DNA from: Bdellovibrionota bacterium FG-1
GTDB taxonomy: Bacteria > Bdellovibrionota > UBA1018
Length of the DNA stretch: 44,397 nt
Reading direction: 5' to 3'
NCBI GenBank assembly: GCA_051382295.1
Contig: JBBCAW010000067.1
Span: 1 to 44,397, forward strand
A model generated the notes under the pieces. It did not search any database, was not told where the DNA came from, and saw only the letters and a list, made by a program, of their open reading frames with translations. The translations under genes and the position numbers were made by a program. Positions 8,461 through 32,940 of this stretch are shown here, in pieces; position 1 is the stretch's first letter; each line of letters starts with the position of its first letter.

Positions 8461-8461
8461 T

Positions 8462-9948: not shown

Positions 9949-9970
9949 ACAGTCCTATCTTTAATGTAAC

Positions 9971-10013: not shown

Positions 10014-10054
10014 ATGTTGTTTTGTTCAATTAAGTGATCGGGGGCGTTGAAGGG

Positions 10055-15497: not shown

Positions 15498-16310
15498 TTA
15501 TCTCATGATCGAAGAGTAAATCATATGAAGAGCCACGAGTGAAACCACGATTGCCAGCAGGGATCGGATCTTCTTTTCCGAAGTCTTGCTCGAAATCGCC
15601 GCACCGATGATGGCCCCAAAAATTGTACCGATCCCCATTGTCATCATGAAATCCAGTTTGACGTGGCCCATGAAGGCGAAGATCACGGTTCCGATAAAGG
15701 ACGAAATAAAGAGAATGAAGTGCGAAGTGGCGACCGCGACATGAGGGGGAACCCGCAGCATCGTGATCAGGAAGGGGACATGGATCACGCCGCCGCCAAT
15801 GCCCAGGAGATTGGCCAGGAAGCCGATGATGAAAGTGCCGATGATGCCAATTTCGATGTTGGTTGTGTACTCAATCTTTTCGCCTTTTGCGGTGGTAATG
15901 GTCATGGCATCTTTTTGCATGAGATTAGCCATTTTGAAGACCCAGTCGCGCATCGAGTAGAGATAGTAAGCGAGGAAAAGCAGAAAAACGCTGAACACCA
16001 GTTTGAAGCCATCCGAGGTGTAATGGCGCACGATAAACGGGCCCAAGATGGCTCCCGGCAAGGCCGCAAGCGCTAGGCGTTTGGCGAATTCAAAATCGAT
16101 GCGTCTTTGTGCGGCATACAGAAAAGACCCCGCCATCGTATTGAGCGCGATGATTGAGAGCGAGGTGCCAATCGCGTCCTGCGGTGAAAAATCAAAAAAC
16201 ATCATGAGAAGAGGGACATGAATCCAGCCGCTGCCTACCCCAATCACGGTGCCCAGGGTCCCGATCAGGGTTCCGAAGATCATCAGCAGCAAGCCTGCAA
16301 ACAGGGTCAT
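15498..16310 (-). CDS. TauE/SafE-family permease; likely MamO-Cter equivalent given the MGC context
   Basis: G.G.GWIHVP, AIGTSL, LLGIGGG.IHVP, A.ATSHF; about 8 TM segments. The TauE call is strong; the MamO-Cter call rests on synteny. Confidence 0.85.
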   Translation of the reverse strand: MTLFAGLLLMIFGTLIGTLGTVIGVGSGWIHVPLLMMFFDFSPQDAIGTSLSIIALNTMAGSFLYAAQRRIDFEFAKRLALAALPGAILGPFIVRHYTSDGFKLVFSVFLLFLAYYLYSMRDWVFKMANLMQKDAMTITTAKGEKIEYTTNIEIGIIGTFIIGFLANLLGIGGGVIHVPFLITMLRVPPHVAVATSHFILFISSFIGTVIFAFMGHVKLDFMMTMGIGTIFGAIIGAAISSKTSEKKIRSLLAIVVSLVALHMIYSSIMR

Positions 16311-16723
16311 TTATCTATCTCCTTGATTGAAATCGCCGAATGCGGGCAGGCGGAAACGCAACTGCGGCAGCCCAGGCAAACGGAAGGATCCACCCTAGAA
16401 TGACCGGCCATGAATTTTTTGGAAAATGAAATCGCGAAAGCCTCGTCACAATTAGGAATGCAATTCTTGCAGCCCAGGCATTTGTCGATATCAATCCATG
16501 CCACCGGTCTTTTGTTGTTTTTTTTGCCGCCTTTTCCGTTGTTCTTCCCGCAGCTGTCATAAATCGCGCCCCGGTTACAAGTATTGAAACATATACCGCA
16601 GCCATCGCACAAAGATTGATTGATCTCGTGCTTGATCTTTTTGTCCCCGACAATGGCCTGGAGAGGGCATTTTTTTCGGCAGAGACCGCAGCCGATGCAC
16701 TCGTCTTTGATAAGGTATTTCAT
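16307..16723 (-). CDS. Polyferredoxin with four CxxCxxCxxxC motifs (Mad9-like by context)
   Basis: CIGCGLCRKKC, CDGCGICFNTC, CLGCKNCIPNC, CLGCRSCVSAC; ATGA overlap with tauE. Confidence 0.85.
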   Translation of the reverse strand: MKYLIKDECIGCGLCRKKCPLQAIVGDKKIKHEINQSLCDGCGICFNTCNRGAIYDSCGKNNGKGGKKNNKRPVAWIDIDKCLGCKNCIPNCDEAFAISFSKKFMAGHSRVDPSVCLGCRSCVSACPHSAISIKEIDK

Positions 16724-16890
16724 AAAATCACTAAAAGCGTGTCCCCCCGAGTAGGGGGTGGATTATTTTTTGACTTTTCTTGTTTAGCGTAGGTGCTGAA
16801 TATAACAACGAATATCATAACAAAAGCCTAAATGAAAACAAATTGACGCATTACGCTAAGTCTGCGTTAGCAAGAAGATTTGCAACTTTC

Positions 16891-16909
16891 AGAAGTTAAG
16901 CTAACCTAA
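16891..16909 (+). promoter_or_regulatory. Candidate DtxR/IdeR-type iron box
   Basis: AGAAGTTAAGCTAACCTAA matches 15 of 19 positions of TTAGGTTAGSCTAACCTAA with a perfect right half-site; abuts the ATG at 16909. Confidence 0.4.
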
Positions 16910-17271
16910 TGATTATGGAAAATGACTCACTGGAAGATGTCGAAACCAGTTTTATTGACGCCGTATCAAAAACAGCTAACGGAGTATCCAACGTGATCGG
17001 CAAGGGTGCCGGCTATTGTGCTGGTTTTGTGACCCGGATTTACAAGGACACCAAGGAATCCGTAAGCAATTCCTCGTTTTATCAAAGTTCTTTTTCCGGG
17101 GTGGACTTTAAATTCCTGACGAGACGAAGGGGTGAGTCTACTTCGATTCAGGGCGATGAGGGAAATACCCCCGAATTTTATGAAGGCCTGGGGCGAGAGA
17201 TTTTTCACACTGCCAGGGCCGCCGAGAAGAACGAAAATTTAGTCATCATCAACACTTCAAAATATAGATAG
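16909..17271 (+). CDS. Small helical protein, candidate Mad10-like magnetosome protein
   Basis: 120 aa with an amphipathic segment (GKGAGYCAGFVTRIY) and C-terminal helix FYEGLGREIF; divergent from the Mad9-like gene. The family call comes from size and context only. Confidence 0.5.
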   Translation: MIMENDSLEDVETSFIDAVSKTANGVSNVIGKGAGYCAGFVTRIYKDTKESVSNSSFYQSSFSGVDFKFLTRRRGESTSIQGDEGNTPEFYEGLGREIFHTARAAEKNENLVIINTSKYR

Positions 17272-17281
17272 ATCCTAATAC

Positions 17282-18436
17282 ATGACAAATGACGATCCAC
17301 AGGACTCCAAAAGTGATAAAAACATTCTCGAGCGGCTTATTGGCGGGATTCGAGAAGTCGCGGATCCGGCTGACCACGATAAACTTCATGAAAAGGTCGC
17401 GGAGCTGAAGGAGTCCGAAAAGCGCGTGGCCGAGAAGAAGCACCCTTCTGCGGCGCCTCCCGTTGGCTTGGATATCGGCACGAGCCGGATCGTGAGTTTA
17501 ACGAGGGATGCCGGTGGCGAAATTGTTCCGAAAGACCAGTTGAACGCGTTTTTCACGATCCCTCAGTCCCTCTTCGCGGCGCAGATGCTCGAAAAGAGCG
17601 GTATGAAGTTCGCGGAGATCGAGGGCAAGCAGCTGGCGATTTATGGTTACGATGCCCAGCAGTTTAGTAATATTTTTAACGGCGAAGTCCGTCGTCCGAT
17701 GAGCCAGGGCTTACTTAAAGCGAGTGAGCCCCTCGCCATTCAGATGATCAAGCTGATCATCGGCCTGGTCGTCGAGAAGTCCAAGACTTTTGGCACGAGC
17801 CTGTGCTTTGGCGTTCCTGCTCCTCAGATCGGATTCGAAAGCGATTTGATTTTTCATGAGTCCATTCTGAAGAAATATCTCGTGGGTATGGGATATAATA
17901 CCAAGAGCATCACGGAAGGCGCGGCGGTCGTCCTTTCCGAGTTGTCAGAAGATAATTATACGGGCATCGGAATCAGCATGGGCGGCGGGATGTGCAATGT
18001 TTGTTTCTCGTTCCTTTCCGTGCCGGTCATTGTTTTCAGTATTCCCAAAGGGGGCGACTACATCGATTCCAGCGTGGCCAGAGTGGTGAACGAAACCCAG
18101 AGCCGAGTGAGGGTGATCAAAGAAGAATCTCTGGATTTCGGGCGTCCCCCGCGCAACAAGGTCGAGCAGGCGTTTGAGATCTACTACGATGACCTCATCA
18201 TGAGTTTGCTCACCCAGCTTTCGGCCGTGTTCTCTCAATCCCAACACCTTCCAAAATTGAGCCAGGCGATTCCCGTGGTGCTCGCGGGCGGAACCTCTAT
18301 GCCTAATGGCTTCAGGCAGAAGTTCGATAAGGCGATTCGCCAGGCCAATTTACCGATTCAGATTTCCGAGGTCAGGCTTTCAGCGGATCCGCTGCGCTCG
18401 ACCGGTAGGGGCGCACTCATTAATGCGGGCGCTTAG
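17282..18436 (+). CDS. Actin-like ATPase, volactin-like subfamily, with an N-terminal extension of about 55 aa
   Basis: Phosphate-1 GLDIGTSRI, phosphate-2 GISMGGGMCNV, KGGDYID, adenosine VLAGGTS, DPL....GAL. Confidence 0.85.
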   Translation: MTNDDPQDSKSDKNILERLIGGIREVADPADHDKLHEKVAELKESEKRVAEKKHPSAAPPVGLDIGTSRIVSLTRDAGGEIVPKDQLNAFFTIPQSLFAAQMLEKSGMKFAEIEGKQLAIYGYDAQQFSNIFNGEVRRPMSQGLLKASEPLAIQMIKLIIGLVVEKSKTFGTSLCFGVPAPQIGFESDLIFHESILKKYLVGMGYNTKSITEGAAVVLSELSEDNYTGIGISMGGGMCNVCFSFLSVPVIVFSIPKGGDYIDSSVARVVNETQSRVRVIKEESLDFGRPPRNKVEQAFEIYYDDLIMSLLTQLSAVFSQSQHLPKLSQAIPVVLAGGTSMPNGFRQKFDKAIRQANLPIQISEVRLSADPLRSTGRGALINAGA

Positions 18437-18701
18437 ACTGCAGAATATTCAAGCGGTCTTGAAGTTTGAGGACGCTGAATATCCGGTTTTGAATATTTCC
18501 GCGACCGGCGTTTTGATCGGTGGCGGTGCGGACCGTGGCGAATGGGGTCCCATTGACGAAGCGGTGGTTCGTAAAATGAGCGCGGGAGTGTTTCAGTTCG
18601 CGCTCTTGGATTCAAACGGCAGTGAGATGGGTTTCGAAGGCAAGCTCGTGCGGGCCTCGGTGGGGTCCGAGATCGCGATTGTTTTTGGAAATGAGGCATG
18701 A
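18423..18701 (+). CDS. PilZ-like small protein
   Basis: ATG at 18423 overlaps the actin gene end; N-terminal RALR and NISATG (D/NxSxxG) motif; beta-rich. Confidence 0.6.
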   Translation: MRALRLQNIQAVLKFEDAEYPVLNISATGVLIGGGADRGEWGPIDEAVVRKMSAGVFQFALLDSNGSEMGFEGKLVRASVGSEIAIVFGNEA

Positions 18702-19615
18702 AGAAGCGAGAGATTATCGCCGTCGGGGGGGGCAAGGGCGGTGTCGGCAAAACGCTCGTATCCGTTAACCTCGCGCTGGCTTTAACCAAACTCGGCAAAT
18801 CGGTCGTCTTGTTTGACGGCGATCTGGGGAGCGCCAATTGCCACACGCTTTTGGGGATCACGCGGGTCGAGAAATCTCTTGAGGAATATTTCAAGGAAGA
18901 ACTCCGGCTGGATTCGCTCGCGGTGCCCACCCGGTTTCCCCAGCTGAGTCTGATTTGCGGCGCGAGCGGCAAGGTCGACGCCTATCTTTCCAAGCCATTC
19001 ATTATGGAACGGCTGATCCGGGAAATTCTTCAGCTGGAGTATGACTATATCGTGATCGATCTCGGTGCCGGGATCGGGGACGACACCCTTGACCTTTATA
19101 ATCTCTCCCATGAAAAAGTCATCGTGGTGACCCCGCAGTTCACTTCGCTTCAGAACGCGTATAGCTTTGCAAAATCCGCCTTTTTACGCAGCCTCAGTCA
19201 GCAAGAAAGCCTGACTGAGTTTTTGTCTAAGATGCCGGATCCGGTGGTTTTCAGAAAATTTATGTTGGAGTTGCCTTCTCATGACGCAGTCCGCCGGGAT
19301 TATGAATCGGTGGTGCGCGATCAGAAGTTCCGGCTTTTAGGGAATATGATGAGCGGCAAGGAACAACTGGCGATCATCAAAAGAGTGCGTGAAGTGATCA
19401 AGGAATTTCTGGATATCGACTCCGCCGAGTTGGGTTTTTTCACGCAGACCGCGGATGTTCAGAGTTCGATCAATAAGATCACGCCTTTTTTGGAGCTCTT
19501 TCCCGACGATCCCAATAGTCGGGAGATGATGCGGGTCGCCGGAGTTCTTGAGGGTAAGCCGCCGGCGGCGCCACCGCGGGCGTGGTGGAAAATCTGGCAA
19601 GAGATCACGGGCTAG
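18698..19615 (+). CDS. MinD/FlhG(FleN)-like P-loop ATPase
   Basis: Deviant Walker A GKGGVGKT, D.DLGSANCH, IDLGAG, VTP..TSLQNAY. Confidence 0.9.
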   Translation: MKKREIIAVGGGKGGVGKTLVSVNLALALTKLGKSVVLFDGDLGSANCHTLLGITRVEKSLEEYFKEELRLDSLAVPTRFPQLSLICGASGKVDAYLSKPFIMERLIREILQLEYDYIVIDLGAGIGDDTLDLYNLSHEKVIVVTPQFTSLQNAYSFAKSAFLRSLSQQESLTEFLSKMPDPVVFRKFMLELPSHDAVRRDYESVVRDQKFRLLGNMMSGKEQLAIIKRVREVIKEFLDIDSAELGFFTQTADVQSSINKITPFLELFPDDPNSREMMRVAGVLEGKPPAAPPRAWWKIWQEITG

Positions 19616-19617
19616 GG

Positions 19618-20277
19618 CTAGCTCGTCTTGGTTCTTAAGACGAAAATATTACCTGCAGTGGTTTTATCCAAGGCGAGTTCCGTATTTTCGAATGTGATGC
19701 AAAACGCGGGTGAGGTCTGGTGCACTTCGAGGACCACCCCCGGATTGAGGCCGAACGACAGCAGCTGATGAAGCTGGGAGTGATTGCTCGGGCGAATGTA
19801 CATGACCTTGGCGGTTTCGCCCGCATGGAGTTCGCTGAGTGCCGACACGACGGAGTCCACCGTTCGTCGTTTTTGGCCGCAGCATTTGCCCGCCGGGATG
19901 GGGCTATTGTCGGGCGCGAGCTCGGGGTGCCCAAGGAGAGTGCAAATCGACTCCTCGATCTCGGGCAGCAGGGTGTGCTCGACCTTGCAGGCGATTTCTT
20001 CCATTTCCGCGCTCTTGAGTTTTAGGATGCTATGGAGCAGGACTTCCGCCAGCCGATGTCTTCGGATAATTTGCTCGGCCAGCCCCTTGCCCGCGTGGGA
20101 GAAAAGGATCTTATCACCGCTTTTGATGAGGAGGTTTTGCTTTTCGAGCTCCGCCAGATCCTCCTCCGAAAGGCTCACGGCGCATTCTTTTTTAATGGCC
20201 TCAATGGAATATTCTTTTTTTTCAGAGGCGACCCAAATGGCCTCGAGCACTTCATCTTGTCTTTCGTTGGGACTCAT
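19618..20277 (-). CDS. DtxR/MntR-family metal-binding protein with a C-terminal FeoA domain
   Basis: RRHRLAE, ACKVEH, LGHP...P...PIP, then FeoA-like L.EL..GE.AKV...L.SFGL.PG; the N-terminal HTH looks divergent. Confidence 0.88.
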   Translation of the reverse strand: MSPNERQDEVLEAIWVASEKKEYSIEAIKKECAVSLSEEDLAELEKQNLLIKSGDKILFSHAGKGLAEQIIRRHRLAEVLLHSILKLKSAEMEEIACKVEHTLLPEIEESICTLLGHPELAPDNSPIPAGKCCGQKRRTVDSVVSALSELHAGETAKVMYIRPSNHSQLHQLLSFGLNPGVVLEVHQTSPAFCITFENTELALDKTTAGNIFVLRTKTS

Positions 20278-20293
20278 AACTCGTTACGCCTCA

Positions 20294-22255
20294 TTATTTA
20301 AAGGTGATATTCATTAAGCGACAGAAATGATTGAGAACGGTGCCCAGCGCTAGGGAGTAGGTGGTGACGATGGCAAGCACCGAAAATCCTGCCCGCCTTC
20401 CTTGTTCTTTGATGATCACGACGACGGAGTTCAGGCACGGCATGAGCAACAACATCATGAGGAGGTTCACCACGAGCTGGAGATTGGTGTATTTTAGGCT
20501 GTAGTGCTCAAGGGTGGCCGCACCACTTTCTTTACGGATCATGGTTTTGATGAAAACGGTGACACTTTCATCGGGAAGTCCGAGCATTCCGACCGCGATC
20601 GGATGGAGTGCCTTTTCGATGATGGTCAAACCGCCCAGACGACTGAAGACAAAGACCACAACCGAGGCGGCAATAAAAACAGGCACGGCCTCCTTCATGA
20701 AGAAAAGGCTCCGAACAAAAGCGCCCTTGAGCACCCTCATGGGCTTGGGAATGCGCATGGGGGGGAGTTCCATCAGTAACGAGGAGCGGGGCCCCGGAAT
20801 GAGTCGGTTTGCGAGCACACCCATCAAAAGAATCTGAAGGCAGATGATTCCGACAATAGTGAGCGTGGCCGAAACCGGCATTTTGCTCAGAATAATGAAC
20901 ATGACCGCCAGCATCGGGGCACAGGGGACTCCGAGGAGAAGGATCATCGTGGCGATGATTTTTTGTTTGCGCGTGTCGAGCATGCGGGTCGTGAGAATGG
21001 CCATGGTGACGCACGAAAAACCCATGACAATGGGCAAGACACCCTTACCGTTGAGGCCGATTCCTTGAAACGCGCGATCGAGTAAAACTGAAAAACGGGG
21101 AAGGTAGCCCGAGTCTTCCAGAAATCCATAGAAAAAATAAAAACAGACGAGAACCGGAAAAACGAGTCCCGCCGCCAGAAAAAGGCCCATCGGAACCAGG
21201 CCAAAATCGGGGTCGGCGATCATATCTCTCAAAAAGGCGCTCGGCAGGGGGGCGACGAGCTTGTGGACGATCGGCATTAAAATTTGGCCAAAAATTTTGC
21301 CGTTGATCAGGTCCACTAAAAAAGTCGCGCCAAACGAGCCGACAAACAAGAACATCAGGGTGGCCACGAGGAGCGCGATGGGGATGCCGGTCAAAGGCAT
21401 GGAGCACCATCTACCGAATTTTTCAATATAAGGCCCCTTGGTTGGGGGGTCAATTTGTTGAACTCTTTTGACGATGGCGTCAGCGGCTTTATTGTAGATT
21501 TCCGCCAGGGTGTTGTTGAACGGTGCAGGTTCTTTGCGACGGTATTGCTCAGCCAGGGTCTTGAGCTGTTCAAGCGTTCCTTCACCGAAATTTTTGATCA
21601 AGAAGGGTTCGATACTCTTATCCCCCGTAAGGAGGAGAATCGCGATCGCGCGAATCGATCGCACCGGACCTTGGGTGAGGAGCTTGGTGTTTAGGGTGAT
21701 GAAATCCTCGACGTAAGTCGGGTATTTGACGAGCTGTTTTGGGGTTTTTAATGCGGTGAGATAGGATTTGAGGTCTGGAATCCCTCTTCCTTCGGTCGCG
21801 ACCGTCGTGCAGACGGGGACTCCCAGGGCGACTGAAAGCGCTTCGGTATCGATCGTGATCCCGCGCGATTGGGCTTCATCAATCATGTTTAAATCGAGAA
21901 GCAGGGGGACTCCGAATTCGGCGTACTGCAGGATCAGGGCAAGCGAGCGGCGTAGGTTTTTAGCATCCCCAACAAGAATGATTCCGTGTGTCGTGAATCC
22001 GGGGTCGGTTGAAAATAGCGTATCTCGCGAAACTCGTTCGTCTTCACTGCTGCCAAAGATTGAGGTCGTTCCAGGAGTATCAATGACATCGAGCGGCAGT
22101 CCTCGGGCGGCTCCTGAGGTCAGTGAAACGGTGCTTCCTGGAAAGTTAACGCTCTTAGTTTTTGCTCCGCATAATTGGGAAAATAACGTGGTTTTGCCCA
22201 CGTTCATATTTCCAACAATAACAATACGCTGCGTACTCAGAGCGGGGAGAGACAT
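20294..22255 (-). CDS. feoB: Ferrous iron transporter FeoB (Mad17/Mad30-like by context)
   Basis: G1 GNMNVGKT, G2 NFPGSTV, G3 DTPG, G4 NMID, LEDSGYLPR, MGFSC, ELPPMRIP, PC gate motifs. Confidence 0.93.
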   Translation of the reverse strand: MSLPALSTQRIVIVGNMNVGKTTLFSQLCGAKTKSVNFPGSTVSLTSGAARGLPLDVIDTPGTTSIFGSSEDERVSRDTLFSTDPGFTTHGIILVGDAKNLRRSLALILQYAEFGVPLLLDLNMIDEAQSRGITIDTEALSVALGVPVCTTVATEGRGIPDLKSYLTALKTPKQLVKYPTYVEDFITLNTKLLTQGPVRSIRAIAILLLTGDKSIEPFLIKNFGEGTLEQLKTLAEQYRRKEPAPFNNTLAEIYNKAADAIVKRVQQIDPPTKGPYIEKFGRWCSMPLTGIPIALLVATLMFLFVGSFGATFLVDLINGKIFGQILMPIVHKLVAPLPSAFLRDMIADPDFGLVPMGLFLAAGLVFPVLVCFYFFYGFLEDSGYLPRFSVLLDRAFQGIGLNGKGVLPIVMGFSCVTMAILTTRMLDTRKQKIIATMILLLGVPCAPMLAVMFIILSKMPVSATLTIVGIICLQILLMGVLANRLIPGPRSSLLMELPPMRIPKPMRVLKGAFVRSLFFMKEAVPVFIAASVVVFVFSRLGGLTIIEKALHPIAVGMLGLPDESVTVFIKTMIRKESGAATLEHYSLKYTNLQLVVNLLMMLLLMPCLNSVVVIIKEQGRRAGFSVLAIVTTYSLALGTVLNHFCRLMNITFK

Positions 22256-22301
22256 GAATTCTTACGTTTTTGGCCCAGTTATGGCGGCCTGTTTCCTTGA
22301 G

Positions 22302-22520
22302 TTAATCTTCGATTTCGTCCGATTTGGAGTCCTTTTTGGAGGTCGAGGGAATGTGTTCCGTTTGCATTCGCTTGAGTCCGGAGACAATCGCCGCAATTCC
22401 AAAGATGAGTAGAAGAAGAGGCACAACGCCCTTGAAAATGTCAAGGAAGATAAACCACCACTTCACAAACCCCCAGACGCTGAGTAGTAACGCAACAACA
22501 CCGCCCAGAACGCTGTACAT
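22302..22520 (-). CDS. mamI: Magnetosome membrane protein MamI-like
   Basis: 72 aa, two TM helices, pattern M.SV..G..AL.....G...WW.......G.VP..L.IFG..A...G matching MamI as I recall it; GGAGA RBS; MGC neighbours. Confidence 0.8.
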   Translation of the reverse strand: MYSVLGGVVALLLSVWGFVKWWFIFLDIFKGVVPLLLLIFGIAAIVSGLKRMQTEHIPSTSKKDSKSDEIED

Positions 22521-22645
22521 AGAGGTTTCTCCTTGTCAAAGTGGGTATCTTATTAAACCATGATGTTCTTAAAGCCTTTCGGCCAACGCGAGTAGATTCT
22601 TGAGTTATTTAATGGGCGTGCTACGAATTATTTTGAGGGTCAAAA

Positions 22646-24864: not shown

Positions 24865-25373
24865 AGGTTGAAGAAATCAAGAAGGGCTTGAGAGGACTCT
24901 CCGAGCTTCGGATCGAGGATCTGACCAAGGTTTCGAGCGAGGTTCTTCAAGGCAACATCGAAAGCATGTTGTCTGCTATTCGCGTTTTGGAATCGCAGCT
25001 CAAGGACACCATGGAGGTGAACGCCGCCCTGCGGACTGAGTCGAAGATGCGGGATGCCGATATTTTGGCGCTGAAGCGCGAAAATCAGGACCTTCAATTT
25101 CGCCTGAGAGAGTTAGAAAAACAGGTTCCTCTGGTTGACGATGTGGAGAAGCGCTTTGAAATCGCGCTTGAAAGAATTGAAGAGTACAAAACATTGTTTC
25201 AGCGGGAAAAAGACAAAACCCGGGGCCTGGCGGTCCAGGTTGACAGTCTGGCCGGGGCGCTCAAGAAGACCGAGGAAGAGCGCAACGATGCGTATAAGGA
25301 AGTGGTCGTGCTGATGAATAAGCTCGAGCAGCCGGAGCAGTTAGCGGAGCAGAAGGGCATACAAAATGGGTAA
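24861..25373 (+). CDS. mad25: Coiled-coil protein, Mad25-like
   Basis: 170-aa heptad protein (LSELRIEDLTKVS...ERNDAYKEVV); ATGA overlap. Symbol by synteny and size. Confidence 0.55.
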   Translation: MKVEEIKKGLRGLSELRIEDLTKVSSEVLQGNIESMLSAIRVLESQLKDTMEVNAALRTESKMRDADILALKRENQDLQFRLRELEKQVPLVDDVEKRFEIALERIEEYKTLFQREKDKTRGLAVQVDSLAGALKKTEEERNDAYKEVVVLMNKLEQPEQLAEQKGIQNG

Positions 25374-26130
25374 TGGCTCAGAGCTGAAAAGGAAGCTGTT
25401 GGATAGCTGGGATCAGATTCGGAGCAAGTACCCGATCGTGGTCGCCGCCGAAGTGGTTGCGGGCGATCCGGTGAAGACCGATTTTTTGAGCTGTATTGAT
25501 GGTCTGAAAACCGCCGAAGAGATTGAGCAGTTTTTCACCCTGAATGCGAGCGAAGCGCATCTGATTTTCACGGATCTGATGAACGTGGGGGCGATTCGCT
25601 TTCTCGATGATGGCGAGCGTCTAGGTTATCTCAAACGCCATGCCATCGAGCTTGAGCGAAATCTGGTTTTCCTTCGTTCGGAGCGCGAACGGCTCCGCGG
25701 TGAGTCTTTGTATCTCAATAAGCAGACCCGCGAGAAAATGCTTGAGGTCGAGGCGTTTAAGACGAAGATTCCGGCGCAGGAGGAAGCCTGCCAGCAGTTG
25801 ACGGGCAATCTGAATTCGCTTCAGGCGAAGTCCCAGGGGCTTTGGGAGCAAAACGCGGAACTTTTTGGGGTCGCTAAAGACGTCAAGCACAAGACGGACG
25901 TGATCAAGACCGGACTGGAGAAGTTGGAGGATCAATTTCCCAAGGTCATGAGAAAAAAAGTCAAGGTGGCGGAACGGTATCGGAAGAACGAAGAAATGCG
26001 CCACACGAGCAAGGACAAGAACGCCGCCGTCGAAAAGAAGCTATTTGAATATCACGATGCTTTGAGTGAAGTCCGCGAATACCTTGAGGACACGAAGTTA
26101 CGAGTGAAGGGTTTTTCGGAACAGGACTAA
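25366..26130 (+). CDS. mad26: Small N-terminal domain plus coiled coil, Mad26-like
   Basis: 254 aa; winged-helix-like N-terminus (FLSCIDGLKTAEEI...L...GAIRF), then a coiled coil. Symbol by synteny. Confidence 0.55.
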   Translation: MGNGSELKRKLLDSWDQIRSKYPIVVAAEVVAGDPVKTDFLSCIDGLKTAEEIEQFFTLNASEAHLIFTDLMNVGAIRFLDDGERLGYLKRHAIELERNLVFLRSERERLRGESLYLNKQTREKMLEVEAFKTKIPAQEEACQQLTGNLNSLQAKSQGLWEQNAELFGVAKDVKHKTDVIKTGLEKLEDQFPKVMRKKVKVAERYRKNEEMRHTSKDKNAAVEKKLFEYHDALSEVREYLEDTKLRVKGFSEQD

Positions 26131-26148
26131 AGAGAATGAGGGTTTGTA

Positions 26149-28014
26149 GTGATCAGGGAATATCCAATCGTCCTAAAAACAGTCCATGGCCGAAAAGAGG
26201 CGCTCGTCCGCCAAATTAGGGCTGATTTGGTGGCCTTGAACCGGGTTTATGAAATCCTTCCGGGTCATGAGGAAATCGAGACCACTCTTTGTCAGGATCT
26301 AGACTGGCTGGTGCAGCAGGATATTGCCGAAGAAATTAAACTCGCTTTCTATAATCCGATTGATTCGACCGATATTTTCCTGGAAAAAAAATATCGTCTC
26401 GGGCTTTTTAATACCACCGCGCGCGCCGGGGAGGTGTCACAGGATCTTGATCAGTGGCGCTTGCCGGACTCTTACGAGTTTGACGTTTTCGTATATTTCA
26501 AAAAGAGTTTTTTGGCTTTGAATTCCCAGGAGCAAGGACGCCGCCTCAGCCGCTTTCACTTCGGTTGGTTTGATTTGGAGAGTTTTTCGACGGATTTACC
26601 CGACAGCCTGCCGTCAGCGGTCAGCATTCAGCCGTCAGCCGTTAGCTCTCAGCCGTCAGCTGTCAGCTCTCAGCTGAGCGTCAAGAAGCACGAGGCGAGT
26701 CATTCCATGACTGGACCGTTCACCTCGGAAAATGGCAAGTCGCTTTTAATCGCCTCTTACACAGATTCTAGAAAGTTGATCGGTGAGTTTATTCAGACGG
26801 CGGCGACGCTTGGCCTCGCCCCCGTGCAATGGACTTACTCTGAGGGGCTTAAGCCTTTAGGCGCGACTGGAGCCTCCGCTATTCCGGACTTTGCTTCCAG
26901 CTACACCTATGACGATCGGCTCTTTTCGTCGCAAAAGCGAGTGTCGCCGTGGGATTTGCTCGGGACGATTCGAAATGAATGCCAGAACGGGCATCGAAAG
27001 AATACGCTCTATTTGCTCGAGGATTTTCATTATTATCTGACGCGCGAAAACCTGTCGGGGCAAGAATTTGCCGAAATGATTTCGATGATCAAGTCCGTGC
27101 CCGAGCCCCTGAAGCGCGCGGGAAGTTTTCTGGTGATTCTGGCCCCGAGCCTGGATTTGCCCCCTGAAGTTGCACCCATCTTTGATACGATCAAGGGGGA
27201 GTCGAGGCTGAAGTCCACGCAGTTGCTCGAGCGTTATGGGCGTGATCTCACGAAACTCGTTCTTGAAAAGAAGATCAAACCCGTGGTGGGACGAGATTCA
27301 GAGATTCGGGAGTGTCTCAAGATTCTTTCGCGGCTCGAGGGCAATAATCCGTTGCTCGTGGGCAAGGCCGGGGTGGGAAAAACCGCGATCGTCGAGGGCT
27401 TGGCGATCCAGATCGTGAGGAATGAGGTGCCTCCGGCATTCCGAAATAAGCGGTTGATTGCCCTCAATTTGAATGCCGTGATTTCGGGAACCAAATATCG
27501 GGGGGAGTTTGAAAAGCGGTTGGAAGGCTTGCTCGAAGAGGTGATGTCGAACGCCGAGAGCATTATCGTCTTCATTGACGAGATTCATACGTTGCTCGGA
27601 ATGGGGAGCACGGAGGGGTCCGCAGGGGCTGAAAACATTCTTAAGCCCTATCTGGCGCGGGGAGAGTTTCCCTGCATCGGTGCGACCACCTATGACGAAT
27701 ACAAAAAGCATATCGAGCCCGACCGGGCTCTCGTCCGGCGGTTTCAGGTGGTCGATATTGCAGAGCCTAATGCGAGCCAGACGGTTGACATCCTGATGGG
27801 GATCAAGAATATTTATGAGAGTCACCATCGAGTCAAGATTTCAAACGATGCCGTCGTGAAGTGCGTGGAGGCCGCTGGAATGTTGACGCAGCAGTATTTC
27901 CCCGGAAAGGCGATCAAGCTGCTCGATAGCGTTTGTGCGTCGGTGTCGTTTGCGGGAAAAGACTCAGTCACTCCCGAGAGTGTCGTCACGGAGTTTAAAA
28001 GGTTGTCTCAGTAG
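26149..28014 (+). CDS. Hybrid AAA+ protein: unknown N-domain, Ycf46-like degenerate AAA domain and a single ClpA/B NBD1
   Basis: C-terminal half has YGRDLT, PVVGRD.EI, NNPLLVGKAGVGKTAIVEGLA, GTKYRGEFE, FIDEIH, IGATT..EY, AL.RRFQ, P.KAI.LLD. The middle region has W..SEGL, LLEDFH, LVILAP.LDLPPE. No NBD2. Confidence 0.85.
   Translation: MIREYPIVLKTVHGRKEALVRQIRADLVALNRVYEILPGHEEIETTLCQDLDWLVQQDIAEEIKLAFYNPIDSTDIFLEKKYRLGLFNTTARAGEVSQDLDQWRLPDSYEFDVFVYFKKSFLALNSQEQGRRLSRFHFGWFDLESFSTDLPDSLPSAVSIQPSAVSSQPSAVSSQLSVKKHEASHSMTGPFTSENGKSLLIASYTDSRKLIGEFIQTAATLGLAPVQWTYSEGLKPLGATGASAIPDFASSYTYDDRLFSSQKRVSPWDLLGTIRNECQNGHRKNTLYLLEDFHYYLTRENLSGQEFAEMISMIKSVPEPLKRAGSFLVILAPSLDLPPEVAPIFDTIKGESRLKSTQLLERYGRDLTKLVLEKKIKPVVGRDSEIRECLKILSRLEGNNPLLVGKAGVGKTAIVEGLAIQIVRNEVPPAFRNKRLIALNLNAVISGTKYRGEFEKRLEGLLEEVMSNAESIIVFIDEIHTLLGMGSTEGSAGAENILKPYLARGEFPCIGATTYDEYKKHIEPDRALVRRFQVVDIAEPNASQTVDILMGIKNIYESHHRVKISNDAVVKCVEAAGMLTQQYFPGKAIKLLDSVCASVSFAGKDSVTPESVVTEFKRLSQ
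26615..26677 (+). repeat. Nine tandem CAGCnnT heptamers, in frame (63 bp)
   Basis: cagcggt cagcatt cagccgt cagccgt tagctct cagccgt cagctgt cagctct cagctga, encoding a SAVS(I/S)QP linker. Confidence 0.85.
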
Positions 28015-28049
28015 CCTTTTGAGTTAGAATTTCCGGGAGGGGTGCAGCA

Positions 28050-30140
28050 ATGAAAAGTAAAAAAAAGATCCTCGTCGTGGACGCCAATAGTCAGACTTTG
28101 AAAGAGTTCATAGGTGAATTTGGCCGCGACTATGAGGTTGCTTCTTGTGCGGACGGCAAATCAGCGCTCGAACAGCTCGAAACTTTTCAACCTGAGGTGT
28201 TGGTGGTCGATGAGGCGCTTGTGGATACACCCTTTACCGAGATATTGGGGCAGGCCGCCAACGGCGTGATCAGGATTGTGACGACCGCAGGGCTGCCGGA
28301 TACCGAAAAGGTTTTTGATTCGGTGAGTGCCAAGCTCGCGGACACATGCTTTGTCAAGCCGCTCAACTATCTCGAACTGCGAAACGTGATTGAAAGGATC
28401 GCGGCGCTGCGGGCCGGTCATGCAGTCGGCGATGCCGACATTCAAGCCGTCTACCAAAAAGTACATACCATCTTTGATAAGGTGAGCGACGCGGAAAAGC
28501 TTCAAAAAGAGGCGCAAAGTCAGCTAGAAAAGGCGCGAAAACTCGAAGAGCAGAGTTTGGCTCGGGTCGAGAACGTGGCGCGCGACCATCAGAGGTTCAA
28601 ACAAAAAATCAGTGACCTCGAAAAAGAAATGGGGTCTAGCAAGGATAAAGCTAAACAGCTCCAGGGACAGAACGAGGTTCTGACCAAGGAAAAAGAGAAG
28701 GCTCAGGACACCCTGAAGGAAATCGAAATCCAGGTCGATTCGACCAAAAGCGCGACTTTGCATGTTTCTGCGGATCTCAAGGTCAGCGGGCGTCAAAAGA
28801 TCGACGGCAAGGACTCGGTTTTGTTCGTGGATGACGAAGAAGACCTTCGAAAAATGTTTTCTGACGTATTTAAGAGCAAATTCAATATTCATCTCGCGGA
28901 CTGTGCGGATGCGGCCGTTATGGCGCTGACGCAGCATCCCGAGGTGGCTTTGGTGGTCACGGATTGCCGGATGCCTCGAAAAACGGGGATTGAGTTGTCC
29001 TATGAAATTCGTAAAACCCATCCCGATCTGCCTATTTTTCTCCTCACTGGATTTGGCGAAATGGACGCCGCGATCAAGGCGATGAATGAAGGTGCCATTC
29101 AACAGTACTATGGCAAGCCCTTTAAATCGGTCGAATTGAGCAAGGCGATCCGTGAGGGGATTGACAAGAGTGATGACGCCGTCGCGCAAAAAACCCTGAT
29201 TTCGGCCAAGAAGGGCTTCGTCGTCGATCGAATCAAAGACTTGGTAGCGCAGGTGGCGAGCCTCGAGCACAACTATTCCAAGGTTCATGAGGAGGAGGAG
29301 CGGCTGCGAGGGGAATCGGCGAAAATGAGCCAGGAGTTGGTCGAGATCAAGACCGAAAGAGATGAATTGAGAGTCTCGGTCGTTAAAGAACGAGAACAGA
29401 TGCGTGACGAGATGGCCGAGGAGAAGCGCAAAGTCGACGCCGACATCGCCAAACGCATGGATGAAGCCACGAGGCTTTTAGAGACCGAAAGGCAAAAATA
29501 CAAAGACGAACTCGTGGAGTTGGAGCTCAAGTTCAAGGCGGACAAGGAAAAAGCCGAACTTCAGTTGGCCGAGATGCGAAAGAAGATGGAAGCCGAGCAG
29601 GCCATCGAGCAGCAGAAGCTGGTCGATGAACGTCAGAAGCTCGAGCTTCAGTTAGCCGAAACCCGCAAGCAGATGGAGATCGAGAAGGCCGATATTGAGG
29701 CCAAACTGGTCATCGAGCGTAAAAGGGGCGAAGAAGAGCTCGCCCGGGTTCAAGCGGATATTGCCGGGACCAAGGCCAGGATTGAAGCGGAGATTCGGCA
29801 GGAGCTGATCGAAATGAAAAGAGTGGCCGAGGCGGAGATCGAAATATTGAAGAAGACCGTCACGAAGGATCTCGACAAACTTCGGGAAGAGTCGATCAAA
29901 AAAGAAAAAGAACTCAATGAGAAGATCAATCAGGTGGGCCGTACGCTTCGTGAAAAAGAAGATGAACTCAACACGAAGAAGCGCTCCATGGCCGAGATGG
30001 AAAAAGAAATGGTGAATATGAAACGAGAGCGCGACGTCGCGGTCAAAGAGCATGATTCCATGAGGGGTGAGTACGACCTTCTGACTCAGTCTCGAGATGC
30101 GCTGGACGCGGAACTCAGTGAATTGAAAGGATCCAGATAA
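28050..30140 (+). CDS. REC-coiled coil-REC-long coiled-coil protein
   Basis: REC1 (ILVVD, VVDEAL, KP), canonical REC2 (FVDDE, VTDCRMP, LTG, KP), then more than 300 aa of E/K/R-rich heptads; TAATG coupling to the mad28-like gene. Confidence 0.85.
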   Translation: MKSKKKILVVDANSQTLKEFIGEFGRDYEVASCADGKSALEQLETFQPEVLVVDEALVDTPFTEILGQAANGVIRIVTTAGLPDTEKVFDSVSAKLADTCFVKPLNYLELRNVIERIAALRAGHAVGDADIQAVYQKVHTIFDKVSDAEKLQKEAQSQLEKARKLEEQSLARVENVARDHQRFKQKISDLEKEMGSSKDKAKQLQGQNEVLTKEKEKAQDTLKEIEIQVDSTKSATLHVSADLKVSGRQKIDGKDSVLFVDDEEDLRKMFSDVFKSKFNIHLADCADAAVMALTQHPEVALVVTDCRMPRKTGIELSYEIRKTHPDLPIFLLTGFGEMDAAIKAMNEGAIQQYYGKPFKSVELSKAIREGIDKSDDAVAQKTLISAKKGFVVDRIKDLVAQVASLEHNYSKVHEEEERLRGESAKMSQELVEIKTERDELRVSVVKEREQMRDEMAEEKRKVDADIAKRMDEATRLLETERQKYKDELVELELKFKADKEKAELQLAEMRKKMEAEQAIEQQKLVDERQKLELQLAETRKQMEIEKADIEAKLVIERKRGEEELARVQADIAGTKARIEAEIRQELIEMKRVAEAEIEILKKTVTKDLDKLREESIKKEKELNEKINQVGRTLREKEDELNTKKRSMAEMEKEMVNMKRERDVAVKEHDSMRGEYDLLTQSRDALDAELSELKGSR

Positions 30141-31345
30141 TGTCGGAAACTCATGAAACGGTCGCCGTAGGGGGCGAGCTTGGCACGTCCTCCTGCAAGT
30201 TTTGTTGCGAAGATACGGTGCTCCTGTTTTCGTCCGTGGTCGGCGACGCCTTGACGGAGTCGATGGAAAATAGCTGGCGGCACATGAACCGCTCCGTGGA
30301 CTCCCGTTGGGTGAGAAACCTCGCGGTTTTTGATGATTCCCGAAGCGCGTGGCGCTACGTCGGAGCCATGACCCGGCGTTCTGAAAAGACCGATTGGTTT
30401 ACCCACAAGGGCTTGATCACCAATCATGACGATGCGTTCGTGGCGATCAAAGCCGGCCTGTTTTTGCTTTTTCTGGAAATGGAGAAAAAAGGAAAACCCT
30501 TGGATCGGATCGGCTTGGGATTTGGCATCACGGTTCGACACGGGGAAAACGTGATCGAAAAGTTTTTTGCCTATATCAAGGATCATCTCGTGGTACGAGA
30601 CGGCAAAAAATACCTCGCGATCAAGGCCAAGAATGTGGCGCTCAACGAAGTCCGTGAGATTGAGATTCAAATGGATTTTTGCGTGATGCAATACCAGGCC
30701 TACGGCGCGTATATGGCGCTCCTCTTTAGTAAGTATAATATGGCGGTTCAAAACACCTATGTCGTCGATATCGGACATGGCACGTGGATCAAGCTGCCGA
30801 TTATCGACAATGAAGCGGAAATCGGACTTTCTGATTCCTTTACCGAAGGCATTTTTACGATCACCCGCAATATCAGCAATGTGATTTTCGAGAGTAGTGG
30901 CCAGAAGTTCAAGATTCCCGAGCAGCGGTTGATGGAGAGATTGCCGAGCAAGGATTACAAAATCGAAGTGCCGGGCACGGGCTTCTTTGATTTTACGAAA
31001 CTTCTGCAACAGCAGACGGCGGTGCTCGCGCGCAATATTAGTGACAAAATAGCCGTAGATATCGCCACCTTATCCGCCAAGGGGCAGTCGATCGATTACT
31101 TCATTATTATTGGCGGCGGGGCTCATCTTTTGTTTGAAGGCATCAAGAAGAACATTGGTGAGTACTTTAATTGGAGTCAAGAAATCCTGGATCAGCGCGT
31201 GATGGGTGCGGAAGCGACGGGCGTGGACCCCCGGCATATCAACTGCGTGGGCTTTATGCTCCTGGCCCGGGATCAGATCGCGATGGACAGTGGTAAGGAT
31301 GTTGTGCCAGGATTTTCGGTCACAAATATCATTCAAGAATTTTAG
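30140..31345 (+). CDS. mad28: Actin-like magnetosome protein, Mad28-like
   Basis: Atypical phosphate-1 VGGELGTSSCKF, SSVVG, phosphate-2 VVDIGHGT, adenosine IIGGGA; about 400 aa; follows mad23-26-like genes. Confidence 0.72.
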   Translation: MSETHETVAVGGELGTSSCKFCCEDTVLLFSSVVGDALTESMENSWRHMNRSVDSRWVRNLAVFDDSRSAWRYVGAMTRRSEKTDWFTHKGLITNHDDAFVAIKAGLFLLFLEMEKKGKPLDRIGLGFGITVRHGENVIEKFFAYIKDHLVVRDGKKYLAIKAKNVALNEVREIEIQMDFCVMQYQAYGAYMALLFSKYNMAVQNTYVVDIGHGTWIKLPIIDNEAEIGLSDSFTEGIFTITRNISNVIFESSGQKFKIPEQRLMERLPSKDYKIEVPGTGFFDFTKLLQQQTAVLARNISDKIAVDIATLSAKGQSIDYFIIIGGGAHLLFEGIKKNIGEYFNWSQEILDQRVMGAEATGVDPRHINCVGFMLLARDQIAMDSGKDVVPGFSVTNIIQEF

Positions 31346-31381
31346 GCAAGAATTTTAAGCGAGAATATTAGGGAGGTTTTT

Positions 31382-31909
31382 ATGGACGTTTCTTATCTGT
31401 GCATTGATGCAGAGCTCGAAAACTTGTTTAACCGGTTCGGCAAGCAGCATCCCGAAGGCTCCAAAGAGGTCTTGAAGGTCGTACTGAAGACCTATTTGAA
31501 GCTGGTCGAAACCAGTCGCAAGCGGGGCACGGATCCGCTTTTGAGTCTTCAAGATTTGGTCGAGCGCATCACCTCGGGCGATATGTATCGATCGACCAAG
31601 GACAAGATTAATAGTCTTGATTCCATGTTGGAGGCCAAAGAGGATCAGTCCAGTCACTTGGAAGGTTCCGCCCTTTTTGAGGAAATTCGAGAAATTAAAA
31701 ACACCATGCGCAAGATGCAGTGGAGTCAAGGCCCATCCGGGCCCGCGCAAGGAAGCTCACAGGGAAGTGCAGAGGGTAGTCTGAGTGACTTCAATCCCAA
31801 GGATGCGGCCAAGCTGATCACGATCGAGGAATCCAGCGAAATCAAAAAGGGCGCGAACTATATGGAGATTCGCAAGAAGGGTAAGCCCCCCAAAAAGATC
31901 GTTTTTTAA
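31382..31909 (+). CDS. Hypothetical protein with an RHH-like N-terminus, flexible linker and basic C-tail (possible Mad27/Mad29-position protein)
   Basis: GGAGG RBS; 175 aa; lies between two actin-fold genes. Confidence 0.7.
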   Translation: MDVSYLCIDAELENLFNRFGKQHPEGSKEVLKVVLKTYLKLVETSRKRGTDPLLSLQDLVERITSGDMYRSTKDKINSLDSMLEAKEDQSSHLEGSALFEEIREIKNTMRKMQWSQGPSGPAQGSSQGSAEGSLSDFNPKDAAKLITIEESSEIKKGANYMEIRKKGKPPKKIVF

Positions 31910-31926
31910 GTGGATAGAAAACGCGC

Positions 31927-32940
31927 GTGAAAAAAATTTACCTCGATCCGGGCGCGTTTTATACGAAGGTCTATGTCCTGGAGTCGACCGCCTCGAATGG
32001 GTTTAAGTTTTTTGGAAGAAGTTTCTTCCCTACGGCGGCCGCGCAAGTCTTGGAAATACCTGAACGGGTCATTGGCTACGAGCATGGCGGGAGCCGTTAT
32101 CTTGTGGGGAGTGATTGCCCGGGTGACCTTTGGAATGTCGCGGATACCAGTGACGCGGGACTGGCTCGGAACGCGCTTATCATCAAATTAATCGTCAACA
32201 AGGCGCTTTTTGATTATGCAGACTCCGACGACGAGGTCGAGTTACACGTCGTGGTCGATACCCCGGAGAAAAGGGGTATTTTCGAGGCAATTACGACGGA
32301 GCGCACGGGCAAATTGACGGTCGCGGGTTTTCGCGGTCCGAAAAAGATCGCCAAGACGCTGACTCTTCAGATGAAGGTGTTGCCCACCTCGGATGGCGTG
32401 CTGGGCTATCTCAGAAAGATTAAGGCCCAGTTTGATTCCTCGCTTTTTGTCGACATCGGCTACTCCTCCACGAAACTGTACGTTGCGAGCGCCCGGCAGG
32501 GCGTGGAGAAGTTTGCGACCTTTGAGTTCGGGGCGCGCTTCTATCTCGACGCCATTATTCGGGCGCTCAAGGATGAAGGTATCGGGCCCCTAGAACCGTA
32601 TTGGCTCACGAAGCAGCTCGAGTTGGGTTGCAAGTCGCTTGAGGTTACGAACGAGGGGCATGCGAGTCGGCAAGTCGATGTGTCTTTGATCCTGGAAAAC
32701 GCACGATGGGACACCAACAAGGATTTTAAAAGAATCACCGTCGATTTCATGACGGATTATTATAATAACAATTCGAGGTGGCCGGGTTTGCTCGTGGTCA
32801 CCGGCGGCGGGGCGCTCTTTAATGGCGATTTGCTCTGCACGGCTTTGGCTCACGACGGCTATCGGTTCGACGATCTTTTTATTGATAAGAGCCCTCTGTA
32901 TACAGTGCTTGAAGGTCTGGCACGATCAGGGATACACTAG
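31927..32940 (+). CDS. Divergent actin-like ATPase (ParM/StbA-like fold)
   Basis: Phosphate-1 IYLDPGAFYTK, FPT, phosphate-2 FVDIGYSSTK, adenosine VVTGGGA. Confidence 0.8.
   Translation: MKKIYLDPGAFYTKVYVLESTASNGFKFFGRSFFPTAAAQVLEIPERVIGYEHGGSRYLVGSDCPGDLWNVADTSDAGLARNALIIKLIVNKALFDYADSDDEVELHVVVDTPEKRGIFEAITTERTGKLTVAGFRGPKKIAKTLTLQMKVLPTSDGVLGYLRKIKAQFDSSLFVDIGYSSTKLYVASARQGVEKFATFEFGARFYLDAIIRALKDEGIGPLEPYWLTKQLELGCKSLEVTNEGHASRQVDVSLILENARWDTNKDFKRITVDFMTDYYNNNSRWPGLLVVTGGGALFNGDLLCTALAHDGYRFDDLFIDKSPLYTVLEGLARSGIH

Follow-up and report, generated by a model that had tools for sequence, protein, structure and literature searches.

What builds magnetosome chains in magnetotactic bacteria (MTB) that code for no MamK? 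The question was asked in 2026 for the Bdellovibrionota, for which no magnetosome gene cluster (MGC) was reported to contain mamK and the actin Mad28 was offered as a substitute (PMC13200544), and it is raised again by contig JBBCAW010000067.1 (C67) of Bdellovibrionota bacterium FG-1, analyzed here over its full 44,397 nt (the window) by open reading frame (ORF) listing and Pfam and NCBIfam family scans. The genome comprises 4.44 Mb in 158 contigs and is 97.7% complete. From about 14.1 kb to its right end, the window is with high probability the accessory, mad-type half of one MGC of a magnetotactic member of the Bdellovibrionota (UBA1018/'Bdellonasia' type). This half codes for a Mad28-type actin (17282-18436) and also for two ParM-like actins, ActP (30140-31345) and h337 (31927-32940), with a small adaptor-like protein, h175 (31382-31909), encoded between them. 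The window and 24 other MamI-bearing genomes carry the ParM-like actin ActP within the cluster or next to it, none of them with MamK, and this system thus provides concrete candidates for chain building.

The host is magnetotactic as judged by genotype. The biomineralization core, a BW-1-like mamAB operon, is found on contig C18, where the interval from 8.7 to 19.4 kb holds, in order, two mamI genes, mamA (1e-49), mamQ/LemA, a 156-aa gene, a cation diffusion facilitator (CDF) gene best matched by MamB/MamM, a mamP-like gene (magnetochrome, PDZ, and NifX), a gene with three PDZ domains and NifX, two trypsin-type protease genes, three small genes, and a second MamB/M-type CDF gene; mamE-Cter was also assigned there, and the two CDF proteins score 234 and 213 bits. 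This is the order given for the Desulfobacterota mamAB-like operon of strain FSS-1 (PMC7951924). The magnetochrome domain (PF18509) scores 31.7 bits, over its cut-off, and is matched in 0 of 14 control genomes; all NCBIfam Mam scores on C18 are below the equivalog cut-offs. Canonical MamK was not found in the genome, where the best match is an MreB-like gene on contig C4 (79 bits, against a cut-off of 400). A first-pass annotation of the window, made from its letters alone, had proposed a magnetotactic host with its core genes elsewhere in the assembly, and the mamABMQEK search bears this out with mamA, mamQ, two mamB/M genes, a mamP-like gene, and mamE-Cter on C18, canonical mamK being the gene that was not found. 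Upstream of the first mamI, at a distance of 1.1 kb, is an IS1-family transposase-like gene (C18 6583-7575, minus strand; E of 4e-11, under cut-off).

The window itself contributes a third MamI-like gene (22302-22520, minus strand), whose 72-aa product has two transmembrane segments (hydrophobic residues 1-29 and 31-53) and aligns over its full length, with residues 1-67 matching positions 1-65 of the 69 in NF040963 (E of 4.5e-16; 58.5 bits, short of the curated cut-off of 80). All three MamI-like genes of the genome, two of them in tandem on C18, give full-length matches (E from 5e-15 to 1e-13), and at E≤1e-5 the model matches none of the 14 control genomes and 5 of 401 sampled Bdellovibrionota. 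The third mamI sits 46 nt upstream of feoB (20294-22255, minus strand), which codes for a ferrous-iron transporter that is a cluster-linked, Mad17-like paralog (TIGR00437, 327.2 bits, over the cut-off of 315.65), and feoB sits 16 nt upstream of a Mad30-like gene (19618-20277, minus strand) in which a DtxR metal-binding/dimerization domain (PF02742, 1.9e-20) is fused to FeoA (PF04023, 9.2e-12), so that the first-pass grouping of a MamI-type gene with feoB and dtxR-feoA on one strand holds. Counterparts of the DtxR-FeoA gene adjoin feoB in MGC loci of other phyla (39-77% identity). A second feoB, at C147 1537-3279, outscores the cluster-linked copy (505 bits, including neighbors in frame) and is presumably the housekeeping copy.

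How the two contigs relate is indicated by G001, a relative in the same family as the host. Its contig C15 carries, in order, the ferredoxin and TauE genes, two unknowns, the 120-aa gene, a Mad28-type gene, a small ORF, and MinD; then DtxR-FeoA, FeoB, and MamI; then HEAT, three coiled-coil, AAA, REC/coiled-coil, 401-, 175-, and 337-aa genes; and then six two-component genes, hemerythrin, and ParA, followed by MamI, MamI, MamA, and MamQ through to the second CDF, the proteins being 36-90% identical to those of the window and C18. Because the mad part, the two-component system (TCS) array, and the mamAB operon are contiguous in G001, the separation of C67 from C18 is probably an assembly break within the TCS array, and paralogous TCS genes are a typical place for such a break. 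The first-pass annotation had described the region as the chain-organization and iron-uptake part of a split cluster; the mad-type accessory part stands, and the split is probably an assembly matter. That the cluster is truly divided between two distant loci in the host is unlikely: the halves do lie on different contigs, and the IS1-like gene upstream of the C18 mamI makes a rearrangement conceivable, but G001 has the whole series in one piece with the TCS array, hemerythrin, and ParA between the halves, and the contig ends agree with this order, C67 ending inside a TCS array and C18 starting with TCS genes followed by hemerythrin and ParA. It is extremely improbable that the window is an ordinary iron-uptake, cytoskeletal, and signaling region in which a small membrane protein resembles MamI by chance. 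The MamI match under its curated cut-off would suit that explanation, as would the fact that FeoB, DtxR, TauE, ferredoxin, HEAT, AAA, and MinD are all widespread families, but it is ruled out by the core mam genes on C18, magnetochrome included, and by the G001 contig that joins the region to the mamAB operon; the rarity of MamI matches (0 of 14 controls and only 5 of 401 genomes of the phylum) argues the same way, and a cluster of the same composition has been published for cells shown to make magnetosomes (PMC13200544).

Several points nevertheless weigh against reading the region as a magnetosome cluster with the Mad names used here. MamI scores fall under the NCBIfam curated cut-off in every genome searched, and magnetosome formation by this host is a prediction from its genes. 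For the HEAT, coiled-coil, AAA, ferredoxin, FeoB, and DtxR-FeoA genes, the Mad names were given according to domain content, position, and published descriptions; domain content, gene order, and homologs in MTB genomes fit the mad set, these genomes having served in place of named reference Mad or Mam sequences of RS-1 and BW-1.

The Mad28-type gene is at 17282-18436 (plus strand), by homology and position. Its 384-aa product is an actin-like protein of the Pfam Volactin family (PF25216, 6.2e-75) with the phosphate-2 motif GISMGGG, that is, the SxGxG that replaces DxGxG as the Mad28 signature (PMC10653835); its closest named relative is an 84% identical protein of Bdellovibrionota bacterium FG-2, and the Volactin model finds only this gene (at 17462-18427) in the whole genome. 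As a stand-in for the named Mad28 proteins of RS-1 and BW-1, a genome with both MamK (482 bits) and MamI (four matches) was used, G445, of the phylum of the Syntrophales genome G008. On its contig C486, a HEAT gene is followed after 4 kb by an actin gene 45% identical to 17282-18436, then by TauE and a Clp-type AAA gene, which is the published mad23...mad28 position; on the phosphate-2 motif and on this 45% homolog at the mad28 position of a MamK- and MamI-bearing genome, 17282-18436 is called Mad28-type. A further point on the opposing side is that three genomes without MamI contain members of the Mad28/Volactin family at 45-49% identity that share the SxGxG motif, and the motif therefore marks the family and not magnetotaxis. 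PF25216 is named after a cell-shape actin of the archaeon Haloferax, and a literature search found no papers that join 'volactin' and 'mad28'.

ActP and h337 are actins of another kind. ActP (30140-31345, plus strand, 401 aa) is a predicted ParM/Ta0583-like actin-fold ATPase with invariant GGELGTS, DIGHGT, and GGGA motifs and a phosphate-2 motif (VVDIGHGT) of the DxGxG form; it has a weak Pfam match (PF21522, 4e-7) and matches neither PF25216 Volactin nor NCBIfam MamK. An AlphaFold model built from 18 homologs (predicted local distance difference test [pLDDT] score of 87.1) finds its best PDB matches in pCBH ParM, Ta0583, Dh-cParM1 (a chromosomal ParM of Desulfitobacterium), CorM, and Alp7A, and in this predicted model the nucleotide-binding motifs are kept and the actin fold is closest to ParM. 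The first-pass annotation had taken 30140-31345 for Mad28, an assignment ruled out by the DxGxG motif, the lack of a PF25216 match, and the ParM-like fold; that annotation had left unflagged the actin gene at 17282-18436, the MinD/ParA gene at 18698-19615, and the actin fold of 31927-32940. Of the three observations on which it had staked its reading, the MamI match at 22302-22520 and the core mam genes are thus present, and a Mad28 match at 30140-31345 is absent. ActP is unusually conserved, with 50-85% identity across phyla and 84-85% identity to the copies in FG-2 and in Oligoflexia metagenome-assembled genomes (MAGs); window proteins are likewise 84-85% identical to those of a Kiruna MAG named in PMC13200544.

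The second ParM-like actin-fold protein, h337 (31927-32940, plus strand, 337 aa), contains the motifs DPG....K, DIG...TK, and TGGGA, with invariant D7, G9, K14, D176, and G293-295. Its AlphaFold model (pLDDT of 91.4) has R1 ParM and Ta0583 as best PDB matches, and the h337 profile finds ActP weakly (E of 4.5e-7). All named database matches of the two ParM-like actins are labeled either 'hypothetical protein' or 'ParM/StbA family protein.' Between the two genes, h175 (31382-31909, plus strand, 175 aa) codes for an adaptor-like protein with no family match, and in an alignment of 16 orthologs the N-terminal domain and a basic C-terminal tail that ends in ..KKIxF are conserved, whereas the linker varies; in the ESM Atlas its best score was 0.78, with unrelated eukaryotic clusters that give no lead. 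Complex prediction for ActP with h175 scores 0.63, against 0.00 for the best control; 116 of 157 solved complexes attain that mark, as do 2 of 215 mismatched pairs. Agreement between runs covers at least 71% of contacts, the partner pLDDT is at least 50, and h175 residues 154-175 lie on ActP residues 136-150, 178-184, 195-204, and 375-388. As a prediction, the model supports binding of h175 to ActP through the C-terminal tail, and because a ParM-ParR-peptide structure (4a62) exists, part of the score may come from likeness to that solved structure.

The distribution of ActP is linked to that of magnetosome genes. A pattern scan of 185,579 species genomes finds ActP in 37, of which 25 have MamI (compared with 0 of the 14 controls), and none of these 25 has MamK at E≤1e-30; 17 of the 25 also carry a Mad28-type gene at ≥50% identity. 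Among the 401 sampled Bdellovibrionota, ActP and MamI are confined to the same five genomes, and neither was found in the other 396. Core mam genes are located within 10 kb of ActP at four loci (L011, L013, L015, and L035), including that of a Polyangia MAG. In a quick maximum-likelihood ActP tree of 37 rows, built without the truncated L042, the MamI label can be explained by 2 changes, compared with a mean of 10.4 for shuffled labels, and 0 of 500 shuffles are as low; such co-occurrence counts include kin that are not independent, and they describe a pattern and do not prove a function. Six Myxococcota-labeled MTB have ActP and no Mad28-type match. In the phylum of G008, 16 of 401 sampled genomes match the MamK family at E≤1e-60, and only five of these 16 also have MamI, so that in this phylum MamK-family actins are common in bacteria other than MTB; the ActP profile matches none of the five genomes with both MamK and MamI. 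Scores over the curated cut-off of the NCBIfam MamK model are reached in 15 of the 401 (G444-G766).

Gene order was compared across the loci as well. By tblastn, ActP, h175, and h337 stand in series in 18 of the 37 loci, the series from HEAT to AAA lies upstream of ActP in 10 of 37, and a Mad28-type gene lies downstream of h337 in 10 of 37, usually with the 120-aa gene between and MinD after; ORF maps of the high-GC loci L034, L037, and L040, which contain spurious antisense ORFs, were left out. The older order seems to be ActP, adaptor, second ParM-like gene, 120-aa gene, Mad28, a small gene (x), and MinD, the last four of which seem to have been relocated, in the window and the genomes closest to it, to a place upstream of feoB.

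A ParM-like filament system of this kind would give the long-range filament that MamK gives elsewhere, a proposal to which slightly better than even chances are assigned. The broader form, to which even chances are given, is that MamK-less MTB of several phyla (Bdellovibrionota, Syntrophales, Myxococcota-labeled MAGs, an Elusimicrobiota single amplified genome [SAG], and an Acidobacteriota-labeled MAG) position their magnetosomes by a recruited ParM-type filament system composed of ActP, a ParR-like adaptor, and a second ParM-like protein. A rival explanation, less favored but still to be reckoned with, holds that ActP, h175, and h337 form a chromosomal ParMR-type DNA-segregation or general cytoskeletal module unrelated to magnetosomes and that Mad28 alone replaces MamK. 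The nearest folds are indeed those of plasmid-partition ParMs, the actin gene followed by a small adaptor gene and the docking of a C-terminal tail resemble parM-parR, and Mad28 is available in 17 of the 25 MamI-bearing ActP genomes. Two ActP clades, moreover, lack a MamI match (12 of 37 genomes: 9 of a Wallbacteria-type clade and 3 Planctomycetota), which counts against a magnetosome role and rules ActP out as an MTB-exclusive family, and in one Wallbacteria genome the neighbors of ActP are a cyclase-HEAT fusion and a DUF3084 gene, without a mam gene in the vicinity. These observations are set against the position of actP in the window, where its start codon and the stop codon of the preceding REC/coiled-coil gene in the mad operon overlap, and against an order (Mad27-like, REC/coiled-coil, ActP, h175, h337, in some cases the 120-aa gene, Mad28, and MinD) that is kept across Bdellovibrionota, Syntrophales, and the Acidobacteriota-labeled MAG. 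The exact co-occurrence of ActP with MamI in the sampled Bdellovibrionota (5 genomes against 0) and the failure to find ActP in the five MamK-bearing MTB also speak for a magnetosome role, and in the six Myxococcota-labeled MTB Mad28 cannot be the MamK substitute because no Mad28-type match is present there.

Two further points temper the proposal of a recruited ParM-type filament: the Elusimicrobiota SAG has ActP, h175, and h337 on a different contig from its MamI genes, and labels for the ParM-like genes may already exist in Fig. S6 or Table S2 of PMC13200544. A literature search found no papers describing ParM-type actins in magnetosome clusters, PMC13200544 being covered by its main text. 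In the MamI-less Wallbacteria MAG at L023 (9983-14802), the ActP homolog is followed by genes for a 238-aa unknown, an adenylate-cyclase/HEAT fusion, and a DUF3084 protein, and the ActP-HEAT neighborhood may predate its use in magnetosome clusters. Three Planctomycetota genomes (G027, G028, and G030, with loci L033, L034, and L036) have two or three MamK-family genes over cut-off, an ActP homolog, and a 37-38% identical Mad28-type homolog, with no MamI match at E≤1e-5, and are either MTB with a divergent MamI or non-MTB with a rich actin set.

The genes between 14.1 and 33 kb fall into four transcription units, followed by a signaling array. The first is a minus-strand unit whose junctions are overlaps or gaps of at most 4 nt, and it includes the TauE and polyferredoxin pair recognized in the first-pass annotation, the two genes of which share a 4-nt overlap. 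The 138-aa polyferredoxin (16307-16723) has several 4Fe-4S motifs (Fer4 families, e.g., PF00037, 5.8e-22) and is Mad9-like by domain content, Mad9 being a ferredoxin-type Fe-S protein (PMC9840458); the TauE/SafE-family anion permease (15498-16310; PF01925, 5.1e-51) is of the MamO-C-terminal type and aligns to positions 527-648 of the 648 in NCBIfam MamO (E of 1e-9, far under cut-off). TauE also adjoins the Mad28-position gene in G445. Downstream of TauE on the same strand are genes for two proteins without a Pfam or NCBIfam match (14103..15494), one of 279 aa (14103-14942) and one of 183 aa with two C-terminal transmembrane segments (14943-15494), which are kept beside TauE in G001 (43 and 48% identity) and are the probable left edge of the cluster.

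The second unit runs on the plus strand from 16909 and has the Mad28-type gene as its second member. It starts with a gene (16909-17271) for a 120-aa protein with no family match and a C-terminal motif, ..EFY..LG.E....NL.II..SKY/F; a 47% identical counterpart is present in G001, and in other genomes the gene sits between the second ParM-like gene and Mad28. A gene with this motif follows h337 in 8 of 10 loci inspected (L011, L012, L013, L014, L015, L016, L019, and L043), and among the same 10 the likeness is weak in L018 and absent in L042. A small ORF (18306-18701, plus strand) without a family match follows the Mad28-type gene; its true start is probably downstream of 18436, and same-position counterparts are 36% identical in G001 and 37% identical in L042. 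The unit closes with a MinD/ParA-type P-loop ATPase gene (18698-19615, plus strand; PF10609, 7e-19; TIGR01969, 2.4e-23, under cut-off), which is Mad29-like, Mad29 having been described as an ATPase (PMC9840458), and of the 10 loci with a Mad28-type gene downstream, 6 have MinD next after it (L011, L014, L016, L019, L042, and L043). The minus-strand unit of the MamI-like gene, feoB, and dtxR-feoA is convergent on this one.

The fourth unit is a long plus-strand operon that diverges from the 72-aa MamI-like gene and runs through HEAT, three coiled-coil, AAA, REC/coiled-coil, 401-aa, 175-aa, and 337-aa genes, with stop and start codons overlapping at four junctions (GTGA, ATGA, an 8-nt overlap, and TAATG). 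The first-pass description of a divergent, coupled HEAT and coiled-coil run followed by an actin with a GGELGTS motif is correct; the run starts at 22646, and the actin sequence begins ...VAVGGELGTS. The first gene (22646-23896) codes for a Mad23-like HEAT-repeat protein with an N-terminal coiled coil (PF13646, 1.3e-27), 33% identical to its HEAT counterpart in G445, which is encoded upstream of the gene at the Mad28 position; Mad23 is a HEAT protein (PMC9840458). The three translationally coupled coiled-coil proteins (23893-26130; 323, 170, and 254 aa) have weak SMC-type matches only and are Mad24/25/26-like by position and composition. Their genes keep their order in 10 loci, and because tblastn found no match to them in G445 at E≤1e-4, the Mad24-26 names are positional. 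A Mad27-like ATPase of 621 aa (26149-28014) carries a ClpA/ClpB D1-type AAA+ module with lid (PF17871, PF00004); TIGR03346 matches residues 355-602 only (3.2e-96), the N-terminal 350 aa belong to no known family, and a 35% identical gene adjoins the Mad28-position gene in G445. The 696-aa protein that follows (28050-30140) has two REC domains (PF00072, 4.8e-24, two stretches) and long coiled coils, and its stop codon overlaps the actP start in the TAATG junction; homologs with 25-60% identity occupy the same position in other loci. Beyond h337, ten histidine-kinase and response-regulator genes, found by the family scans, extend to the contig end (32972-44334, plus strand).

Left of the cluster, all on the minus strand, are several genes of separate interest. 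A TumE-like toxin and HVO_A0114-family gene pair (13355-14016) stands exactly at the left border of the magnetosome region and has no counterpart at that place in G001. A run at 6605-10456 codes for an Fe-S-domain protein, a class-V aminotransferase (NifS-like), a CobW-type GTPase, an ABC (ATP-binding cassette) ATPase, and an Rrf2 regulator; the run is 4 kb away from the edge of the cluster and may serve in metal or Fe-S homeostasis. A 685-aa neutral/alkaline ceramidase with a C-terminal domain, an uncommon enzyme in bacteria, is encoded at 3668-5725 (PF04734, 9e-157), and an AbiEii toxin (PF08843, 5e-31) and AbiEi antitoxin (PF11459, 4e-46) are at the left contig end (567-1982).

How these parts might work together can be sketched from RS-1 genetics, from which the roles of the Mad23, Mad25, Mad26, and Mad28 homologs are taken by analogy: in RS-1, Mad23 joins crystals into sub-chains, Mad25 and Mad26 keep the sub-chains linear, and Mad28 seeks positive curvature (PMC12748827, PMC12713370). 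The ferredoxin, TauE, 183-aa, and 279-aa proteins would handle redox and anions at the magnetosome membrane, and the third MamI with the extra FeoB and DtxR-FeoA would supply iron to the vesicle under iron-sensing control, feeding and sensing iron for the organelle. The 120-aa protein, Mad28, the small ORF, and MinD may combine a curvature-seeking actin with a positioning ATPase. The long operon, from HEAT to the TCS genes, would link crystals into sub-chains and place the chain, with h175 engaging a ParM-like filament by its C-terminal tail to form a long-range track; this ParM-type system is envisaged as working with Mad28 and the Mad23-26 coiled-coil network, its assembly regulated by the REC domains and the adjacent two-component kinase array. 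If this is true, an organelle is moved by machinery otherwise known for plasmid segregation, and the 2026 question of what replaces MamK is answered.

The Elusimicrobiota provide a further setting for this system. Elusimicrobiota MTB are reported to lack mamK and mad28, and their mae4 and mae5 genes to be similar to unnamed genes of Bdellovibrionota and Planctomycetota MTB (10.1101/2022.07.08.499144). ActP, h175, and h337 are all encoded in the Elusimicrobiota SAG, which bears on the claim that chain-forming genes are missing from Elusimicrobiota MTB; a correspondence of mae4 and mae5 to ActP and h337 is a lead only.

Among known systems, the type II ParMRC and chromosomal ParM-like actins are the nearest in fold to ActP and h337 (R1 ParM/ParR, 4a62; pCBH ParM, 6ixw; Dh-cParM1, 8x1i; CorM/CorR, 9rmi; Alp7A, 5ec0; and the archaeal Ta0583, 2fsj), with Foldseek E values of 1e-13 to 6e-16 and TM scores of 0.6-0.76. 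The actin gene is followed by a small gene, as in ParM systems, and the model places the h175 C-terminal tail on the actin; unlike those systems, sequence identity is 11-18%, the genes lie inside a chromosomal organelle cluster, and no centromere-like repeat was seen in the window, where no search was made for one. MamK resembles ActP in being an actin-fold protein encoded in magnetosome clusters, with a chain-scaffold role that is presumed for MamK and proposed for ActP, but it belongs to a different actin subfamily, and the two never occur together in a MamI-bearing genome among those searched. With Mad28 (PMC10653835, PMC12713370, PMC12748827), 17282-18436 shares the SxGxG motif, the actin fold family, and a place beside a MinD-type ATPase gene, whereas 30140-31345 has DxGxG and belongs to another actin family. 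The Desulfobacterota MGCs (Solidesulfovibrio magneticus RS-1, Fundidesulfovibrio FSS-1, and Desulfamplus BW-1) have mamK and no ActP by the pattern scan; relative to them, the REC/coiled-coil, actP, h175, and h337 genes are inserted in the window and the Mad28-MinD unit is moved upstream of feoB, and they are represented in their likeness by G445, where a Mad28-type gene follows the HEAT gene.

The closest resemblance is to the Bdellovibrionota MGCs of PMC13200544 (ISME Commun 2026). That study describes clusters from FG-1, FG-2, and 21 public MAGs that combine a BW-1-like mamAB operon with mad17/23/25/27/28/29/30, runs of 5-10 contiguous two-component genes beside the MGC, and, in FG cells, bullet-shaped magnetite chains, the magnetosomes being shown by transmission electron microscopy. 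The cluster type is therefore already in print and is no longer new, nor is the lineage as poorly studied as the first-pass annotation had supposed. The window matches these clusters point by point in gene set, absence of mamK, and TCS arrays, and to the one actin named in the main text of that study, Mad28, are added here two further actin-fold genes and an adaptor-like gene.

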